From positions 1 through 30,416 of IMG/VR virus record IMGVR_UViG_3300034072_002212: 30,416 nt of DNA. One strand, 5' to 3'. The translations under genes and the position numbers were made by a program. Each line of letters starts with the position of its first letter. The first letter of the stretch is position 1. Positions 125-23,054 of this stretch are shown here, in pieces. This DNA is from a virus. Its lineage: Duplodnaviria; Heunggongvirae; Uroviricota; Caudoviricetes. The notes beneath the pieces were generated by a model, which worked only from the letters and a program-made list of their open reading frames with translations, ran no database searches and was not told the DNA's origin.

Positions 125-164
125 CTGAGCTGGACTAACCAGTTCAATATTCATGGAGGGCATC

Positions 165-4303: not shown

Positions 4304-5182
4304 TCAATAGCCGCCCATTGCGCGCCGGCGCTTGGTCATGCTGCTCTTGTTGTTTGCGGCGCGCTTGCTGCGGGCCGCAGCTTGGAAGGCCAAAAGCTCT
4401 GCTGCCAGCATGGGGTTGGTCCGCACATGATTGCGAGCTTCCTCACTGGCCTGAAGGATCAAGTCCAGCTTGACCTTGGCCAGACCGCCGCTGGGCGTCT
4501 TGACCATGTAGCCATAGAGCTTGGCATTGCGGGGGTTGCGACCAGCGACCTCGTAGATGCCGCCCTTGAGCTTGAGCTTCAGACCGATCAGCGGGTTGCT
4601 CTCTTCGGTCTTGGCCGCCATGCGCTGTTCCAGCAGCCCAGCGTCAACGAAATCCTTGCGCGGGTTGGTGTATGCGCTCGAGGGCACCCGATCATTCACG
4701 AACCGCTTGCGGAACCGCTTGTAGATCTGTCGGAAGAAGTAGCCGTGATTGCCCTCATAGCAGCCGATGCCGTCGAAGTAGAGGTCCTTGGGAAACTCGG
4801 GGCGCTCAACAAAGAGGGGATGGTTGCGACCGGCCTGCTTCATCGCGAACTGGATGATGTGGGCCAGTTCGTGGGCGACCAGGGCATCAACGGCCAGGGT
4901 CCAGTCAGTGGTCTCGAAACCACCGACCTCGGGCCAGGCATTGTAGGCCTTGTATTCCACATAAGCCTTGACCTCTTCGCGCAGGAAGTGGTAGCTCTGG
5001 AACTTGACCGTGTAGGCTCCCAGGCGCTGCGAGGCCTGACCCATGGGGCCCGAGGGCACGTCGACGATGCGGACCTTGAGGGGAAGCTTGCTGAACTTGA
5101 ATTCTTCCAGGGCCCACGCGACCTGCTCTGCTACGGCCTTGTCGACCTGTGCCTTAAACTGAGCTGCGGTGGGAAGGGCCAA
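4304..5182 (-). CDS. SprT-like zinc metallopeptidase (HExxH)
   Basis: LVAHELAHIIQ plus downstream NHGYFF; TTG start with RBS CAGGAG. Confidence 0.65.
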   Translation of the reverse strand: MALPTAAQFKAQVDKAVAEQVAWALEEFKFSKLPLKVRIVDVPSGPMGQASQRLGAYTVKFQSYHFLREEVKAYVEYKAYNAWPEVGGFETTDWTLAVDALVAHELAHIIQFAMKQAGRNHPLFVERPEFPKDLYFDGIGCYEGNHGYFFRQIYKRFRKRFVNDRVPSSAYTNPRKDFVDAGLLEQRMAAKTEESNPLIGLKLKLKGGIYEVAGRNPRNAKLYGYMVKTPSGGLAKVKLDLILQASEEARNHVRTNPMLAAELLAFQAAARSKRAANNKSSMTKRRRAMGGY

Positions 5183-5185
5183 GTT

Positions 5186-5244
5186 CGATCTCCTGTTTGT
5201 GCCTCGTTACCCAGACTTGGTAGCACAAACAGGTGAGCAGTCAA
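5186..5244 (-). promoter_or_regulatory. Sigma70-type promoter nested in an 11-bp inverted repeat that covers the RBS
   Basis: TTGACT(5244-5239)-N16-TACCAA(5222-5217); CCTGTTTGTGC (5233-5223, in the spacer) pairs with GCACAAACAGG (5202-5192, RBS). Confidence 0.7.
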
Positions 5245-5250
5245 CCACTT

Positions 5251-5874
5251 TTAGAGCTTTCGCTCCTTGAGATAGGCCTTCACGCGATCCTGCACCTCAG
5301 TGATCTTTGCCGTAGTCCGAAGACGCTCTTCCTCCAGAGTCTTCAGTGTTGCGTCCACCTTGTCCTTGAACAGGAGGGTCTCCTGGAAGATGTTGTCAAG
5401 CATGGGATGACGATTACCACGGGAAGCGCGATCCGCAAAGCTATTCGTGGATGAGCGCATATAGCTGACCTGGTTGAACTGATCCTGCATGCTCTTCTGA
5501 TAGTTCATCAGAACTTCATATTCCATGATCTCAGCTTCAATGGCCGAAGGCTCAAGGTCTCGCCATCCGCCAATGTATTTGGTGATGTTCTTGCCCACCT
5601 GATCATAGTTGAGCTTGAACCAGATCGCGTTGCGGGCTTCTTCAATCTGAACGATGTGACCGTAGAACTCGTGCTCCAAGCCTACCTTTTTGAGAGCCTG
5701 CTGGAACTCGTGCTCACCGTGAGGGAGGATCTTGAAGCGACCCTTGATTCCTCGCTTGAGCAGTTCAAGATCAAAGTCACCACGAATGGTGCCCTGCTTG
5801 TAGCGGTAACGGGTTCCACCCCAAACTGAGGTAGTGGCTTTGTGCCTTGCGGCCTGGTAGAGGAATAGGTGCAT
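5251..5874 (-). CDS. Hypothetical protein with AIWFKLNY motif and C-terminal coiled coil
   Basis: 207-aa ORF; the xxFKLx(W/Y) motif is shared with other genes in the window. Confidence 0.7.
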   Translation of the reverse strand: MHLFLYQAARHKATTSVWGGTRYRYKQGTIRGDFDLELLKRGIKGRFKILPHGEHEFQQALKKVGLEHEFYGHIVQIEEARNAIWFKLNYDQVGKNITKYIGGWRDLEPSAIEAEIMEYEVLMNYQKSMQDQFNQVSYMRSSTNSFADRASRGNRHPMLDNIFQETLLFKDKVDATLKTLEEERLRTTAKITEVQDRVKAYLKERKL

Positions 5875-14727: not shown

Positions 14728-14965
14728 AGCTGACCTTACCCCCTTCCTTTTTGTAGCAGATCTGGCCAGTGCGAACGCTGCCGGCCTTGGTGCCGATGAA
14801 GTGACGACCCTTGCCCATTTTGCCGCAGGAGAAGGAGTCACGAATCAGGACCTTGCTGTAGCCCTGGCTCTCGAGATGCTTGGTAAGGTCCTCGTTGCGG
14901 ACCATGGGGCTCTGACCACACGCTGCGAGCGTTACGGCGAGAGCGACGATGCCAATGCGAAACAT
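14642..14965 (-). CDS. Small lipoprotein
   Basis: Lipobox LAAC after a hydrophobic stretch; RBS CAGGAG. Confidence 0.75.
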   Translation of the reverse strand: MFRIGIVALAVTLAACGQSPMVRNEDLTKHLESQGYSKVLIRDSFSCGKMGKGRHFIGTKAGSVRTGQICYKKEGGKVSYAVDELGTAKPTAGNDNGRTGGIPSPWK

Positions 14966-17731: not shown

Positions 17732-18166
17732 TCACTCGGTGATCTTGTTGTAATCATCGTCGATTTCGCCGTTCTCCTGCGCCTGCAGGATGCCGTCACC
17801 GATGATGTCGAGGTTGCTGTTGCTCATGCCGTGAAGCTTGTGGAACTCGATGATCTTCTCGCGATCATAGATCTCCTCGACGTCCACGTTGCTCCAGAAC
17901 TCTACGCTGGTCTCACTGTGCTTGCCCGCGAAGTCGCTGAAGTAAGCCGTTGTGCCCTCGAGAGCTGCCTTGATCTTGGCCCACTCTTCGCGAGTGTAGA
18001 TGACCTCGTCATAGAGGTCAGAGACACGACCATAGGTGAAACTGACCTTGACCAGCACCTTGTCCGCAAAGCGGAAGAGGTTCCGCTGAGCGTCGACCTC
18101 TTCCCAGGTCATTGCGAGGACACCGGCAACCACGATGCCCTCTGGTGTAACGCCTACATCAGCCAT
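17732..18166 (-). CDS. Acidic hypothetical protein (FAGKHSE motif)
   Basis: Clean ORF coupled to the upstream gene. Confidence 0.7.
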   Translation of the reverse strand: MADVGVTPEGIVVAGVLAMTWEEVDAQRNLFRFADKVLVKVSFTYGRVSDLYDEVIYTREEWAKIKAALEGTTAYFSDFAGKHSETSVEFWSNVDVEEIYDREKIIEFHKLHGMSNSNLDIIGDGILQAQENGEIDDDYNKITE

Positions 18167-19865
18167 CGACCGCTTCCTTCAAAGTCTCGAGATCCAGAAT
18201 GGTAGTCTTCAGCTTGCCATTGTAGGCCAGCTTGAACATCATCGCCGCGCCCTTGTTGGGGAACGTGACTGCGACCGAGCGGAAGTCAGTGGCCTTTTTA
18301 TAGGTCCCCTTCTTCATCTGGGTGCTCTTGATCGCAGCGTCGATGAGCGCCTGCTCCTCCTTGGAGATAGCGGTCGTGTCGCCGTGGTAGCCCACGTTGT
18401 CCAGCTTCTCCTCGTCGGTCTCAGTGAAGACTACCATGCCCTTCTGACTGTCGAGCAAGTTGGCCTTCTCGAGGGCCTTGTAGGCGGTGCGGACAGACGA
18501 GCCATACTTGACCGTCAGCTCACGCAATTCCCAAGACCGCTTGAACCAGTCGTGGAAGTCTTCGACCGGGCCGATTTCCTGGCGGGCCAGCTTGTCGAAC
18601 TTGACCAACTCCCAGTCCTCGGTCATGTGGAAGGTCTTGCCGCCGCCGCCCCACTCGGGCAGGGATTCGTCAGCGCCAGGCAGACCGTCATAGTAGCCAG
18701 TCATCATGAGGATGCTGGTCTTGGCCTTACCGAGGTTGTCCCACTTCTTGCCCTTCATGAACGTGTCGACCATCTCCTGATGATCAACACCATTGTCCTC
18801 GTTGGCGTCCTCTTCGTAGTGGTTCTTCCAGCGATAGTTGCCCTTGCTGTAGTCGGGCGCCAGGTAAAAGCGACCCGTGGGCTTGTGTCGCAGGCACCAC
18901 ACGTCGACCGTCGGAATGCTCTCGGCCTCGATGAAGTCCTTGATCATGCTGTATTCCAGACCGACCAGCTTGTCCTCGCCGTCGAACTGAACTTCGGCCA
19001 CGTTGCCGTATCGCTGACCGTGCCAACCGTTGGGGTTGAAGTAGGTATTGAACTTGCCGCGAACGGTGAAGATCTCACCGGCCTTGATGCTGCGGTAGAG
19101 CTTGGGCGTGTATTCGCCCAGGGTCTCCTGTGCGTTCTTCCGCATTGCCTCGCGAGCGGTGTACCAGTTCTGGTGCGCGTTGTTGTCGCAATGATTGTGG
19201 TCAGGGCGGGGATTAGCCTTGTCCCACTTGTCGATGTGGGCGTGATAGGCGCCGTTGGGAGCACCATAGTAGATGTCCACGTCTTGCGTGAACTTCCAGC
19301 GGCTCTTGTCGACCATCTGTTGACGCAGGTTGACCTTGGGCTGCTTCTTGCGCGCCTCAGGCTTTTCTGCAATCTCGAGGTGTCGAGCCTGAGCCCATTT
19401 GTTGTTCTTCGACCAGCCGACCAGGACATCATCCGGCGTATAGCGGGACTCACCCAGCTTTGTATATTCATCATGGATGGCGTGTTGAGCCTTGTTGTCG
19501 GCCTTCCACGCCTTCTCGAATTCCTTTTCTTTCTCGGGAAGGATCTCCCAGCGATCGTATGCCTGCTGGGTCCAGGTCTGACCGCCACGCGAATGAGTGG
19601 TCGCGGGATAGTGGACCTTGTGGCTGAGCGACTTCCGCAGCGTCTCGAACTCTTCCTGCAGGGCGCCGATACGACGCTGCCGCTCGTCCTTTTCCTGTTG
19701 GGTCAGCATGTCCTCTGCGCTAGGAAGCGCAACGTCGCTGATCTCTACGATCACTTCTTTGCTGGTCGTTTCCTTGGAAGTGCCATACCAGCGGCTGATC
19801 AGGGGAGTGCCCTTGGGCACCTTCATGTAGAGGCCCTTACGGAAGGGACTGTCGGTGAGGTCCAT
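18159..19865 (-). CDS. Large hypothetical protein (568 aa) ending in AMMFKLAY
   Basis: Start taken as ATG 19865 with RBS CAGGAG; the track's longer N-terminus overlaps the HNH gene. Confidence 0.75.
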   Translation of the reverse strand: MDLTDSPFRKGLYMKVPKGTPLISRWYGTSKETTSKEVIVEISDVALPSAEDMLTQQEKDERQRRIGALQEEFETLRKSLSHKVHYPATTHSRGGQTWTQQAYDRWEILPEKEKEFEKAWKADNKAQHAIHDEYTKLGESRYTPDDVLVGWSKNNKWAQARHLEIAEKPEARKKQPKVNLRQQMVDKSRWKFTQDVDIYYGAPNGAYHAHIDKWDKANPRPDHNHCDNNAHQNWYTAREAMRKNAQETLGEYTPKLYRSIKAGEIFTVRGKFNTYFNPNGWHGQRYGNVAEVQFDGEDKLVGLEYSMIKDFIEAESIPTVDVWCLRHKPTGRFYLAPDYSKGNYRWKNHYEEDANEDNGVDHQEMVDTFMKGKKWDNLGKAKTSILMMTGYYDGLPGADESLPEWGGGGKTFHMTEDWELVKFDKLARQEIGPVEDFHDWFKRSWELRELTVKYGSSVRTAYKALEKANLLDSQKGMVVFTETDEEKLDNVGYHGDTTAISKEEQALIDAAIKSTQMKKGTYKKATDFRSVAVTFPNKGAAMMFKLAYNGKLKTTILDLETLKEAVDG

Positions 19866-19866
19866 A

Positions 19867-19916
19867 CGATCTCCTGTTACTTTCAACCTGTGTAGCAGAT
19901 TGAGCAAACAGGACAA
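19867..19916 (-). promoter_or_regulatory. Promoter nested in a long hairpin covering the RBS
   Basis: TTGTCC-N16-TACACA; TCCTGTT…TCAATCTG-ctaca-CAGGTTGA…AACAGGA. Confidence 0.55.
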
Positions 19917-19958
19917 GGCAATTTTGACGCCCGCTGTTCGCTTCATATAGAATAGGAT

Positions 19959-20387
19959 ATGCGCGAAAAACAGGCTGCTTCTATTGAAGAAACCAAAATC
20001 TATATTCAATCTAGGATTGTAAAAGATCCAGAAACTGATTGCTGGATTTGGTCCCAATTGAAGGACAAGAAAGGCTATGGTCTAGTTGATAGGGACACAC
20101 GGATCTTTCGTCTAGCCAAAACTACACATATCCATCGCGTATCCTACCTAGCATTCAAAGGCAAGTTAGAGGAAGGAATGGTTATTCGCCATCGCTGTAA
20201 TAACCATTCCTGTTGCAACCCTGTTCATCTAGAACAAGGAACTCAGCTTCAAAATATGGCTGACAAATATGAAGCTTTGGGTCAAAGGTCAGATGCTGCG
20301 CTAGTTGTTCTCAAACGTCAGCTGCAAGAATCTTTAGAAGCGGTCGAACAAGAACTCAGCCGACGAAAAAAGAGCCCCGGCGCATAG
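19959..20387 (+). CDS. Free-standing HNH homing endonuclease (HNH_3 type)
   Basis: CWIW…GYG…HRVSY…VIRHRCNNHSCCNPVHLEQGTQLQNMAD; AT-rich (17/60 GC at 19981-20040); TTGACG-N18-TAGAAT upstream. Confidence 0.85.
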   Translation: MREKQAASIEETKIYIQSRIVKDPETDCWIWSQLKDKKGYGLVDRDTRIFRLAKTTHIHRVSYLAFKGKLEEGMVIRHRCNNHSCCNPVHLEQGTQLQNMADKYEALGQRSDAALVVLKRQLQESLEAVEQELSRRKKSPGA

Positions 20388-20398
20388 CACCAGGGCCC
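20366..20398 (-). terminator. Intrinsic terminator of the putative sRNA
   Basis: GGGCCCTGGTGC-TAT-GCGCCGGGGCTC-TTTTTT (12-bp stem with G-U pairs). Confidence 0.8.
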
Positions 20399-20538
20399 AA
20401 GGAAAGCAGGAGATCGGTCTCAACTGCTATCGGAAACTCGGTTGCAAGGTTATTGTCGGGGCCCTATTGTCGGGCTGGCGATGGACGGCCATCCACACCA
20501 GTAAGTCCCTATCGCCGGGCCCTTATCGTCGCCTTGCC
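20366..20538 (-). ncRNA. Putative ~173-nt small RNA
   Basis: Lies between a promoter and an intrinsic terminator; no SD-led ORF; nested helices with two symmetric internal loops; anti-RBS segment. Confidence 0.65.
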
Positions 20539-20543
20539 ACACC

Positions 20544-20571
20544 TTGATAGCACCAGGAGACTTTGTGTCAA
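20544..20571 (-). promoter_or_regulatory. Sigma70-type promoter of the putative sRNA
   Basis: TTGACA(20571-20566)-N16-(TGc)TATCAA(20549-20544), same geometry as other promoters here. Confidence 0.7.
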
Positions 20572-20575
20572 CCGT

Positions 20576-20767
20576 TTAATTGAAGGTATGACGAGAAATT
20601 CCACCCAGGTGAATCAGCACGCGATTGGTGCCTTCCTCTGTCTCACTGAGTGCCCTGGGAGTGCCACCAAGAGTAGCAGAGGTATGGTCAATCCAGTCGA
20701 GGGCCTTGGCTTCGTCACCTAGGACGTCAGTGGCTTTCTCGACAATCTTCTGTAGGTTAGGGGTCAT
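20576..20767 (-). CDS. Orphan antitoxin, Xre/MbcA/ParS C-terminal toxin-binding domain (DUF2384-like)
   Basis: ATDVLGDEAKALDWI…LGGTP…TEEGTNRV…L matches the family pattern; no HTH and no adjacent RES toxin. Confidence 0.75.
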   Translation of the reverse strand: MTPNLQKIVEKATDVLGDEAKALDWIDHTSATLGGTPRALSETEEGTNRVLIHLGGISRHTFN

Positions 20768-20770
20768 GAT

Positions 20771-21262
20771 TTACTCCACGCGGAGGTCTGTGTTCCTAAC
20801 CGTTTTAGCATATTCCACCACGTCGCCGCACTTAAAAGATGACAAACGGCTCAAAGTATAATCACCAGGGATGAGCTTCGCAGGGACATCAAGTGCCTGG
20901 GCAAACTTCTCGCTCTTATCACCGGCATAGAATTCGCCATTGTCCTGTGACCACATGACCGTGTTACCCGACGGGTGATGGAGGATCCAACGCCAGCTGG
21001 TTTTCACATAGCAGGGCTCGCCTTCGGTGCGCTTGATCTGGATGTTGTAGAAGATCTGCGAGTCGCGCTTGATCTGAACAGTTTCCTGGCCGAATGGTTC
21101 TGCGCTCACGTAGCTACTGGTGATCACGGCACTAGCCGCGTTGTCACGGTCTTCCTGGATGCTTTTGTTGGTGCTGGCAATAACATTGGCGAGCATAACG
21201 TAAATGCCGAAGAGGCCAATAGCCACCACGCCAAGCTTAATGATAGTGCGAATCCAGTCCAT
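20771..21262 (-). CDS. Membrane-anchored protein with periplasmic beta domain
   Basis: N-terminal TM helix, two Cys; RBS GGAG; TAAATA upstream. Confidence 0.7.
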   Translation of the reverse strand: MDWIRTIIKLGVVAIGLFGIYVMLANVIASTNKSIQEDRDNAASAVITSSYVSAEPFGQETVQIKRDSQIFYNIQIKRTEGEPCYVKTSWRWILHHPSGNTVMWSQDNGEFYAGDKSEKFAQALDVPAKLIPGDYTLSRLSSFKCGDVVEYAKTVRNTDLRVE

Positions 21263-21348: not shown

Positions 21349-21795
21349 TTACGGGACCATGCAGGCCGCCTGGAGGATGCCGATGCCCAGACCGATGCCG
21401 CCGATGAAAACGCCCGAAGCCGAGCAGTTGTCCTCGATGCGCTTCTCGATTCCCGAGAACGCCTTGGCGATCACGAAGAACACCGCCAGCTGGACGACCA
21501 GCACGACCGCGCCCCAGAGGGCCATGTCGAAGATGCTGACCGAGTGGCCGATGACGATCGCCATCGGAACCGCGAAGCCGAGGAACGTGCCGACCAGCTG
21601 AGTTGCTGCCGCGGTGTTGCCGTTCTTGATCAGCGCGAATTCCTTGTGCGGCGTGATCAGGGTGTAGAGCACCAGGAAGACCACGGCCAGGAGCAGCGAG
21701 GCGCCGAAATAGCCGAGGAAGTGCGGGAGGGCGTCACCGAAATAAGCGACGATCGGGTTGGTGGTGGCCTCAGTGGCCGGAGCGGTGGTATTCAT
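21349..21795 (-). CDS. DUF350 membrane protein (YjfL-like)
   Basis: Four TM helices, ITPHKEFALIKNGNTAAA motif. Confidence 0.85.
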   Translation of the reverse strand: MNTTAPATEATTNPIVAYFGDALPHFLGYFGASLLLAVVFLVLYTLITPHKEFALIKNGNTAAATQLVGTFLGFAVPMAIVIGHSVSIFDMALWGAVVLVVQLAVFFVIAKAFSGIEKRIEDNCSASGVFIGGIGLGIGILQAACMVP

Positions 21796-21808
21796 TGCTG
21801 CGATCTCC

Positions 21809-22987
21809 TTATTCGCTGTCGGGCAGGAAGTAGTGAGGGATGAAGCGAGAAGTGTTGCCCGTCACCTCGCTCACGTCTTCGCGGATGCCCATGCCCGACG
21901 GGCGGCCGCCTACGATCCAGCTGCCGATGATCGGCGTCATGCCGTCGTGCTTCGGAAGCGGAAGGTATTCCTGGTAGATGGCCTTGGCCAGCGCATCATA
22001 GCCGCGCTTGACGCCCTCGACGGCGACCTTACCATCCCGAATGATCTTCACGTCTGCGCCCTCGCGCGCCAGCATGGGCTTCTCGACATAGTTGCCCTTG
22101 AGCGGCGCGCTCTGCCAGTAGGCCGGCAGCAGGTTCTCGTGACCCTCGTAGAGTTCCCAGAGGATGGGCAGGATGCCCTTGTTCGAGAGAACCAGCTTCC
22201 AGGCCGGCTCCAGAACGTCCCAGGGCTCCTTGAGCATGAACTTGCCGAAGTCCTCGCGGACCAGCCATTCCCAGGGATAGAGCTTGAAAATCGTGTTGAT
22301 CGGCTTCTCGTTGAGATCCGTGAACGAGGTGCCGTTCCAGCCGATCTGCTCGATATCGAGATAGTCGGTCTTGAGGCCGGCCTGGATCGCGCAGTCCCGG
22401 AGGTATTCCGCCGTGCCCTTGTCCTCGAGGTTCTCCGCGACCGCCGCGAAGTAGAACGTCTCGTTCGGGCCGAGCACCTGGTCGCCGACATACTTCAGCT
22501 GTTCGATCAGCCGCTCATGGATGCTGTTGAACTGATCGAGCGTCTGACCCGTGCGCTGGGCATACTGTTCCATCCAGAACCACTGGACGACCGATGCCTC
22601 GAGCAGCGAAGTCGGAGTGTCGGCGTTGAACTCCAGCATCTTGGGAGTGCCATCGGCCGCCAGAGCGAAGTCGAAGCGACCATAGAGGTCCACGTCCTGG
22701 CGCTCCCAGGACTTCTTGATCAGCGCGTGGAAGTCGGCGGGGATGGCGAGCTGGCTGAGCAGGTCACGCTCGATCGCATAGTCGACTGCCGAAAGGCACA
22801 TGCGATCGAGGACCGTGCTGGCTTCCTCGATCTTGTCGACTTCGCCGGCCGTGAATTCATATGCGTGGGTTTCATCCCAATACATGGGATCGACACCGGG
22901 GTCGGTTGCGAGGGTGTGCCAGTAGAAACCGACCTTCTCGCACTGTGCCTGCCAATCCGGCCGGGCTTCAATTGCCAAACGCTTCAA
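21809..22987 (-). CDS. Glutathionylspermidine-synthase-like ATP-grasp ligase (YgiC/YjfC family)
   Basis: YWDE…YGRFDF…KMLEFNADTPTSLLEA…FKLYPWEW…EPAWK…SNKGILP…KPMLAREG…IGSW…GIRE; no amidase domain. Confidence 0.9.
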   Translation of the reverse strand: MKRLAIEARPDWQAQCEKVGFYWHTLATDPGVDPMYWDETHAYEFTAGEVDKIEEASTVLDRMCLSAVDYAIERDLLSQLAIPADFHALIKKSWERQDVDLYGRFDFALAADGTPKMLEFNADTPTSLLEASVVQWFWMEQYAQRTGQTLDQFNSIHERLIEQLKYVGDQVLGPNETFYFAAVAENLEDKGTAEYLRDCAIQAGLKTDYLDIEQIGWNGTSFTDLNEKPINTIFKLYPWEWLVREDFGKFMLKEPWDVLEPAWKLVLSNKGILPILWELYEGHENLLPAYWQSAPLKGNYVEKPMLAREGADVKIIRDGKVAVEGVKRGYDALAKAIYQEYLPLPKHDGMTPIIGSWIVGGRPSGMGIREDVSEVTGNTSRFIPHYFLPDSE

Positions 22988-22989
22988 TT

Positions 22990-23042
22990 CGATCTCCTGT
23001 GATCCGTTGTCCTGTGTCTATGCGAAACAGGACCGAAGTCAA
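22990..23042 (-). promoter_or_regulatory. Promoter whose spacer arm can pair with a proximal arm or with the RBS
   Basis: TTGACT(23042-23037)-N16-TAGACA(23020-23015); GTCCTGT/ACAGGAC, alternatively TCCTGT with ACAGGA of the RBS. Confidence 0.6.
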
Positions 23043-23054
23043 CCGCTTTGTGGC

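Follow-up and report, generated by a model that had tools for sequence, protein, structure and literature searches.

The c4 antisense RNA of phages P1 and P7 (RF01695) is a phage small RNA (sRNA) that blocks a ribosome-binding site (RBS) via short exposed pairing segments. A related mode of action had been proposed for a putative sRNA encoded on the minus strand of a 30,416-nt stretch of Caudoviricetes DNA, herein the window, which spans the initial 30.4 kb of an IMG/VR virus record (IMGVR_UViG_3300034072_002212, hereafter G000) that is 181.8 kb long and estimated to be 39 % complete. According to this original prediction, the RNA shuts off several genes of its own phage by occluding their Shine–Dalgarno (SD) sequences with a 10-nt antisense seed. 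Judged by comparative sequence analysis, the window sRNA belongs to a real and previously undescribed RNA gene family of a phage clade with genomes of approximately 450 kb, and the conserved part of the molecule is a 5′ rod, not the proposed seed.

Whilst c4 is processed from the one operon that it regulates, the window RNA possesses its own promoter and terminator, has no Rfam match and harbours a large conserved rod that is unrelated to pairing. Closer in layout are RsaE/RoxS, mmgR/alpha-r8 and NsiR1, multi-target anti-SD sRNAs in which the C/U-rich seed is the most conserved element and is unpaired. As in these molecules, a CU-rich element of the window RNA lies by a 3′ hairpin and terminator and is complementary to several GGAG-type RBSs; unlike in RsaE/RoxS-type sRNAs, this seed is variable and mostly bound within a stem, with Rfam scores of about half the gathering thresholds. 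The CsrB/RsmZ sponges and 6S RNA are protein-binding, and display short motifs repeated in the loops of a stable structure. The window RNA similarly conserves structure and loops rather than a pairing seed, although the likeness goes no further than the idea of repeating motifs in loops: the motif is RRCGAUA/RACAAUA instead of GGA, no CsrA is present in G000 or in four related phage genomes (G001–G004), and there is no 6S-like central bubble. The endoribonuclease RegB of phage T4, which cuts GGAG within the SD sequences of early genes, provides a conceptual parallel for a class of phage genes shut off via a shared SD, but is a protein nuclease and not an RNA.

Bacterial Y RNAs contain the motif GNCGAAN0-1G near their 5′ end and a long stem with large internal loops, have been found in 22 phages, and almost invariably share a strand with rsr, within 4 kb of it (PMC4201824). 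The window RNA resembles YrlA/YrlB in its long stem and large internal loops. It also has a near-match to this motif, of a kind that chance would be estimated to supply about once per 170 nt, and is encoded by a phage with a TROVE protein; unlike YrlA, it has no tRNA-like domain and is not adjacent to rsr. For the repeated gene cassettes described below, the closest published concept is the PeSL promoter–terminator cassettes of T4-type phages (PMC2839356, PMC4122927), with which they share a stereotyped early-type promoter, flanking inverted repeats and dozens of copies before small genes in a variable genome block. Their sequence differs from that of PeSLs, and the cassettes here also fix the leader and SD (AGGAGAUCG-aaa-AUG); the likeness is one of layout.

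A family of phage RNA genes

The gene comprises the following elements.

20537 to 20366, minus strand: small RNA gene of approximately 172 nt (transcription predicted)
20544..20571, minus strand: sRNA promoter, with TTGACA at 20571–20566, a 16-nt spacer and the −10 element TATCAA at 20549–20544
20366..20398, minus strand: intrinsic terminator, a 12-bp GC-rich stem (20398–20372) followed by U6 (20371–20366)

The components first described for this gene, namely the promoter, a stretch free of any SD-led open reading frame (ORF) and a U6 terminator, were all borne out. The promoter lies where it had been placed and is conserved in position across homologues, with a TGC directly before TATCAA creating an extended −10. 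It does not appear in the output of a generic sigma-70 scan, because the final base of its −10 is not T, and belongs to the same class as the promoters of the clade's repeated gene cassettes (TTGAC ... TG(C/T)TA). Transcription would be expected to start at approximately 20538–20536. Over the RNA, the sense strand has only two ORFs, both GTG-started and neither with an SD: one of 30 aa begins at about the predicted transcription start and one of 31 aa begins upstream of the promoter. A small-peptide reading was rejected, as the 30-aa frame, the sole frame compared, is not preserved in L013, the nearest relative; the 1-, 16- and 17-nt indels that distinguish homologues were likewise counted against it. 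At the other end, the 12-bp stem and T6 tract of the terminator, just upstream of which is a U-rich spacer (UUCCUU, 20404–20399), have counterparts in the homologues. The minimum-free-energy fold of the whole RNA is −77 kcal/mol (z = −3.9 versus shuffles), and this single-sequence fold agrees with the comparative structure.

An exact 11-nt direct repeat, CCTGGTGCTAT (minus strand), occurs at 20384–20394 and 20547–20557, with one copy across the sRNA promoter spacer and −10 and the other within the terminator hairpin. It is similar to the GGTG(C/T)TA −10 region of a second promoter located 3′ of the terminator in relatives.

Homologues were sought by scanning collections of viruses, metagenomes and genomes for patterns and passing the matches through a covariance model. 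In this way nine distinct members were obtained: the window RNA, L010 (in G001), L014 (G002), L013 (G003), L015, L034, L012 (G005), L011 and L008/L052 (G004). The relatives of the window record are phage contigs of 435–465 kb, in which the element is found downstream of a 63-aa gene or upstream of a 568-aa gene. The eight other members retain promoter, structure and terminator alongside compensatory base changes. The common layout of the family consists of TTGAC, a 16–17-nt spacer, a TA-initiated −10, the 5′ rod, a linker, a hairpin (P4) and a terminator. The rod begins 7–12 nt past the −10, and TTGAC and TA lie at a conserved distance from its first helix in all nine homologues. Each terminator is a different GC-rich hairpin followed by T5–6; the 3′ end is complete in the alignments for eight homologues.

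In each of G000–G004 the covariance model (R1) detects a single copy. A looser pattern scan of viral contigs returned 78 new loci, none of which match this model, and scans of genomes and metagenomes added only L015, L034 and duplicates. No Rfam family matches the window or four homologous loci at gathering thresholds. In E-value mode the RNA region yields only weak sub-threshold matches, located at the 3′ hairpin plus terminator, the best being NsiR1 (20.6 bits against a gathering threshold of 39) and mmgR/suhB (19.1 bits against 41). A BLAST of the RNA region against 50,697 GenBank phage records gave no match.

The form in G004 also has a TTGAC promoter and ends with a P4-like hairpin followed by T5, whilst that in L011 holds an insertion of approximately 200 nt. 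Within G004 (L052, 3976–4606) the family core heads an ORF-free RNA of approximately 630 nt, which holds two T-arm-like hairpins (GCUGG-UUCGAUC-CCAGC and CUGGG-UUCGAAU-CCCGG), neither of which is called as a tRNA by ARAGORN. From this long form and the L011 insertion it follows that the core is a module tolerating very different 3′ parts. A second non-coding stretch of partly similar sequence is present in the same genome at L052 ~4860–5480, past a small lipoprotein gene.

The conserved 5′ rod

The rod and its parts, as derived from RNAalifold helices, covariation and model R1, are as follows.

20444..20537, minus strand: 5′ rod (core)
20537–20532 with 20449–20444, minus strand: helix P1
20531–20523 (CGACGAUAA) opposite 20457–20450 (GACAAUAA), minus strand: internal loop 1
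20522–20517 with 20464–20458, minus strand: helix P2
20516–20510 (GGCGAUA) opposite 20471–20465 (GACAAUA), minus strand: internal loop 2
20509–20507 with 20474–20472, minus strand: helix P3
20506–20475, minus strand: variable apical hairpin

The rod thus consists of three helices separated by two near-symmetric 7 × 7 internal loops, the strands of which are invariant across homologues (RRCGAUA in the 5′ strand and RACAAUA in the 3′ strand). A–C pairs could form across these loops. RNAalifold applied to nine cores recovers helices P1–P3, with compensatory changes at five pairs. In a covariation test, for which a specified structure was compared with slid partners and 500 column shuffles, 84.7 % of alignment cells in the rod are paired, as opposed to no more than 42.6 % when the partners are slid. 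Cells changed on both sides number 17, compared with one to four in the slid controls, and none of the 500 column shuffles matches the observed values. Sequences of the P2 strands in L013 and L015 (GAGCCC/GAGCCU versus GGGCUC) are complementary and not repeated, so that a simple direct repeat at the DNA level is excluded.

The variable 3′ region

Between the rod and the terminator lie three features.

20429..20443, minus strand: linker AACCGAGUUUCCGAU, the most accessible part of the RNA
20405..20428, minus strand: hairpin P4, AGCAG-UU-GAGA-CCGA-UCUC-CUGCU
20416–20407, minus strand: proposed seed CGAUCUCCUG, comprising three loop bases and the 3′ strand of both P4 stem segments

Opening the linker costs 1.0 and 4.2 kcal/mol in 10-nt windows, compared with 3.7–18.9 kcal/mol elsewhere. 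Its sequence AGUUUCCGAU is conserved in four of eight homologues, with L010 and L014 having AGUAUCUCCUGU in its place. The linker was considered as the true seed and rejected, as its complement ATCGGAAAC occurs in relatives at the counts of the reversed control and is not enriched; in G000 itself it has no leader match.

Hairpin P4 is part of the minimum-free-energy fold, exactly as it had been drawn. The fourth pair of its lower stem displays all four Watson–Crick forms amongst eight homologues (CG in four, GC in two, and AU and UA in one each), and its upper stem is GAG/CUC, such that CUCC follows from the stem itself. CUCC is present in the 3′ domain of seven of the eight. The segment equivalent to the seed is CGAUCUCCUG, UUGCUCCCGC, UUUACUCCGG, UUAUCUUGG or UUGAUCCGG, depending on lineage, whilst the loop strands of the rod are invariant throughout; L013 and L015, which are close relatives, possess the same P4 hairpin without a match to the RBS. 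The seed is mostly the 3′ strand of the covarying P4 stem and costs 8.3 kcal/mol to open in the window RNA. The 10-bp duplex would be worth −16.2 kcal/mol and opening of the target mRNA a further +1.3 to +5.2 kcal/mol, leaving a weak net pairing of approximately −3 to −7 kcal/mol. By these comparisons the seed was added recently and within a single lineage, and the conserved working part of the RNA is a different one.

A shared promoter–leader cassette

The sites to which the seed is complementary are listed below.

19867..19876, minus strand: RBS CAGGAGAUCG of the 568-aa gene (18159–19865), a proposed target
22990..22999, minus strand: RBS CAGGAGAUCG of a glutathionylspermidine-synthase-like gene (21809–22987), with a cassette-type promoter upstream
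5186..5195, minus strand: RBS CAGGAGAUCG of a 292-aa gene (4304–5182), with a full cassette promoter (TTGAC at ~5244–5240)
21801..21809, minus strand: RBS AGGAGAUCG of a DUF350 gene (21349–21795), a 9-nt match
14978–14972: CAGGAGA, a 7-nt match before the ATG at 14965

All of these matches had been reported, and all are correct: the 10-mer complement is exact at each of the three RBSs, and the 9- and 7-nt matches are as described. The window holds exactly four copies of CAGGAGATCG, where 0.10 would be expected and 0/100 shuffles reach that count; three coincide with minus-strand RBSs, and the fourth lies within the RNA in antisense orientation (20407–20416). There are no others in the remainder of the 181.8 kb record. 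Upstream of the RBS of the 568-aa gene, a GAAAG could, as read from the sequence, contribute 5 bp more after a 3-nt bulge.

Of the 94 GGAG-type RBSs in the record, ten read GGAGATCG, with the next commonest tetranucleotide after GGAG occurring four times. In the complete relatives G001, G002 and G003, AGGAGATCG is present 67, 56 and 37 times, respectively, versus 0–3 for a reversed control, almost wholly on one strand and clustered in blocks of approximately 50 kb composed of small genes. These copies belong to a cassette made up of aaaCTGG-TTGAC, an inverted-repeat spacer, TG(C/T)TA, a leader of approximately 20 nt ending in GCAAAC, and AGGAGATCG-aaa-ATG. The upstream element TTGAC...TG(C/T)TA accompanies 53 of 61 inspected copies, and the genes behind cassettes are small (median ORF of 111 aa). 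The three target genes in the window have the cassette or a degenerate version of it (5196–5250, 23000–23050 and ~19877–19960); further examples are in L042–L047. As the RBS motif is an integral part of a repeated promoter–leader cassette, no sRNA is needed to explain why it is shared.

The cassette spacer is an inverted repeat of the bases just before TTGAC, and the two co-vary (ACTGG...CCAGT, ATAGG...CCTAT and ACAGG...CCTGT), which suggests a hairpin or operator around the −35. AUAG in the cassette leaders was entertained as a counterpart of the core loops, but is present in only 16 of 53 leaders and was set aside as too weak.

Complementarity to cassette SDs by lineage

Complementarity between the sRNAs and phage RBS windows or leaders was assessed by a k-mer test against 300 shuffles, with a natural-sequence background also counted. 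The window RNA matches 13 of its own 242 predicted RBS windows by at least 9 nt (shuffle mean 2.6; 0/300) and six by at least 10 nt (shuffle mean 0.6; 0/300). Through the P4 segment, 12 genes of the 181.8 kb record are matched, five by 10, five by 9 and two by 8 nt. L010 and L014 match 20 of 40 G001 leaders by at least 9 nt (shuffle mean 0.3–0.4; 0–1/300), but do so with AUCUCCUGU against ACAGGAGAU, located in the linker and not in P4, at an opening cost of 3.7 kcal/mol. In natural sequence such 9-mers occur at 0.03–0.06 per kb on the sense strand.

Two other lineages lack such an excess. L013 is at chance level against 21 leaders of its own G003, a genome with 37 AGGAGATCG sites (173/300 shuffles), as is L012 against 153 RBSs of its own G005 (211/300 shuffles). 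The expectation that the seed would be conserved, or would co-vary with its target RBSs, has therefore failed. RNAduplex energies compared with shuffles give the same pattern across lineages, although this method is noisy. On the basis of flanking-protein identity the window is closest to G003, the sRNA of which has no seed; the complementarities of the window RNA and of L010/L014 are therefore independent gains.

In L034, UCUCCUG-UAG-CAGGAGA in the leader of the 568-aa-like gene (~130–160, minus strand) forms a perfect 7-bp hairpin, by which the gene's own SD CAGGAGAUCG would be sequestered in cis.

Interpretation of the RNA family

The explanation favoured here, to which evenly balanced confidence is attached, is that the rod is a protein-binding platform, and that in the window phage a plastic 3′ module has acquired complementarity to the cassette SD, of which it may or may not make use. 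An RNA of approximately 172 nt would be made from its own promoter, of the class driving dozens of small-gene cassettes. The rod would bind a protein, probably a dimer, with the RNA serving as scaffold, sponge or decoy, and the 3′ part (linker, P4 and terminator) would be free to change during evolution. Expansion of the P4 loop in the window phage may then have generated the 10-nt complementarity to the cassette-leader SD CAGGAGAUCG, and the linker of L010/L014 independently gained 9 nt that pair with this SD. In some lineages an accessory activity, in which the SDs of cassette mRNAs are blocked, is plausible; it is not what defines the family. Conservation, covariation, copy number and the excess complementarity are observed, whereas transcription, protein binding and any regulation are inferred.

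Several observations weigh against this explanation. As candidate protein partners, neither CsrA (sought in G000–G004) nor Hfq was found in the phage genomes. Only nine sequences from one clade are available, such that the covariation statistics derive from few independent events, and 17 other phage records with a TROVE homologue, nine of which are at least 90 % complete, have no match to model R1. In addition, both independent gains of SD complementarity would arise by chance with a joint probability of roughly 1e-3 or less, which favours base pairing mattering more than this explanation allows. Given the independent 9-nt complementarity of the second lineage, selection for anti-SD pairing has to be reckoned with.

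Tentatively, one may go further and envisage a two-module sRNA, with a fixed rod and an evolvable 3′ module, that throttles small and probably early cassette genes; or else a rod that acts as a decoy or Y-like partner of an RNA-binding protein, be it from the host or the phage, within an anti-defence neighbourhood. Should the 3′ module indeed pair with the SD of the cassettes, a single RNA could control dozens of genes simultaneously, and such throttling of a whole cassette class would be the RNA counterpart of T4 RegB. If the rod binds protein, it would constitute a new ribonucleoprotein of megaphages. Hardly any work has addressed the non-coding RNAs of very large phages, and the architecture of this family, with its two near-symmetric internal loops, is unusual. 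Its natural variants, having a seed in the hairpin, in the linker or not at all, furthermore provide a ready-made comparative experiment.

That the RNA is mainly a dedicated trans-acting riboregulator, whose CGAUCUCCUG seed pairs with SDs and shuts off translation, seems unlikely. What stands of this original regulon proposal is a terminator-ended non-coding RNA gene with complementarity to RBSs beyond chance; what does not is the seed, which is neither conserved nor co-varying. In its favour are the use of one RNA segment for perfect 10-nt matches to five RBSs and 8–9-nt matches to seven more (0/300 shuffles), and the separate arrival of L010/L014 at the same cassette SD through an accessible linker. 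The recurrence of CUCC in the 3′ domain, the weak sub-threshold Rfam matches to anti-SD-type sRNAs (NsiR1, mmgR/suhB) and the use by L034 of UCUCCUG in cis to sequester CAGGAGA in a downstream leader all point in the same direction. Against these must be set the absence of excess complementarity in L013 (G003) and L012 (G005), the position of the seed largely inside a covarying stem and an estimated net energy that is marginal. Furthermore, conservation of the RNA peaks outside the seed, and the RNA and its supposed targets use one promoter class.

The opposite view, that the complementarity is a functionless by-product, is likewise doubtful. The P4 stem (GAG/CUC with its closing G–C pair) would dictate CUCC, the flanks of this motif would have drifted towards the commonest RBS of the genome, and the RNA would act via its core only. 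With CUCC-NGC conserved, the full 10-mer needs just N = U and four loop bases, the close relatives L013 and L015 share this hairpin but not the match, and the interaction energy is again marginal. Set against this, the four loop bases and N = U would arise by chance in approximately 1 in 1000 cases, and a second lineage has gained a 9-mer at another position (approximately 1 in 100).

It is considerably less probable that the RNA is a Y-RNA-like partner of the phage Ro60/Rsr (TROVE) protein, with the rod, bearing GACGAUAG near its 5′ end, as the Rsr site. All of G000–G004 encode a TROVE protein, the invariant GACGAUAG is one position off the bacterial motif GNCGAAN0-1G, and the two T-arm-like hairpins of the 630-nt G004 form recall the tRNA-like domain of YrlA. 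The TROVE gene is, however, approximately 100 kb or more from the RNA in each of these five genomes, and a conserved 0.95 kb ORF-free stretch beside it is a better candidate. The TROVE-encoding records that have no R1 match, which leave the co-occurrence unsupported outside the clade, count against this pairing too, as does the lack of any Rfam family at its gathering threshold, and motif matches with one mismatch (GACGAUAG, GGCGACG) are estimated to be expected about once per 170 nt.

Improbable to a still greater degree is a cis-acting leader, whether riboswitch-like or a protein-dependent attenuator, that governs read-through into the 568-aa gene. The layout of a conserved aptamer-like domain followed by a terminator would suit such a role, and in seven other loci the RNA is directly upstream of the 568-aa homologue. 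In the window genome, however, an opposite-strand HNH gene separates the two; in relatives, a second conserved promoter follows the terminator and precedes the 568-aa gene, the RNA core occurs without any 568-aa homologue in the complete genome G004, and no consistent antiterminator pairing emerges on reading the sequences. Obligate pairing of the RNA with the 568-aa protein was rejected, as G004 has the former and not the latter.

Least credible of all is that there is no RNA, and that the CGATAG/CAATAG repeats are DNA-level protein sites (operator-, origin- or partition-like) or the 3′ untranslated region of the antitoxin-like gene: the four or five repeats of a short motif and the palindromic GGGCCC/GCGCGC centre of most homologues would fit, but the halves in L013/L015 are complementary and not identical (GAGCCC with GGGCTC), those in L010 match at 5/6 positions as a helix and 3/6 as a direct repeat, promoter and terminator are conserved in position, and the upstream genes vary among loci.

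Neighbouring genes and additional observations

The genes closest to the RNA within the window are as follows.

20771–21262, minus strand: gene for a 163-aa membrane-anchored protein
20576..20767, minus strand: 63-aa gene encoding a stand-alone Xre/MbcA/ParS C-terminal (toxin-binding) domain (PF09722, E = 6.2e-7)
19959..20387, plus strand: HNH_3 homing-endonuclease gene (PF13392, E = 1.3e-12; PHROG HNH endonuclease families)

The 63-aa protein consists of the toxin-binding domain alone, with no helix–turn–helix (HTH) and no RES toxin gene nearby. A homologue of its gene is directly upstream of the RNA in five of the nine loci, and in three related phages the protein encoded at this position displays 78–82 % identity.

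The HNH_3 gene is an insertion unique to the window genome, lying in the interval that separates the sRNA terminator from the 568-aa gene. It is missing from this position in the seven loci with a 568-aa homologue (L010–L015 and L034), in which that gene follows approximately 60–100 nt past the terminator. Its last codons overlap the sRNA terminator on the opposite strand, with the stop codon in the terminator loop, and a promoter (TTGACG-N18-TAGAAT) is present at 19924–19953. The 568-aa protein (18159–19865, minus strand) has no Pfam, PHROG or PDB-sequence match; it displays 57–74 % identity to the proteins encoded beside the sRNA in G001–G003 and G005, and is absent from the complete genome G004.

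With regard to the TROVE/Ro60 (Rsr)-like protein, that of G000 is 598 aa in length and is encoded at 122652–124448 (minus strand; L194:3653–5449). In addition to G001–G004, it is found in at least 26 other viral contigs. No tRNA or tmRNA was detected by scanning the window, L052 and the surroundings of the TROVE gene. Directly upstream of the TROVE gene and a 98-aa gene is the ORF-free stretch of approximately 0.95 kb (G000 ~124.8–125.8 kb; L194:5820–6775), which has no Rfam match, shows 68–74 % nucleotide identity in G001–G003 and is a candidate for a large Y-like RNA.

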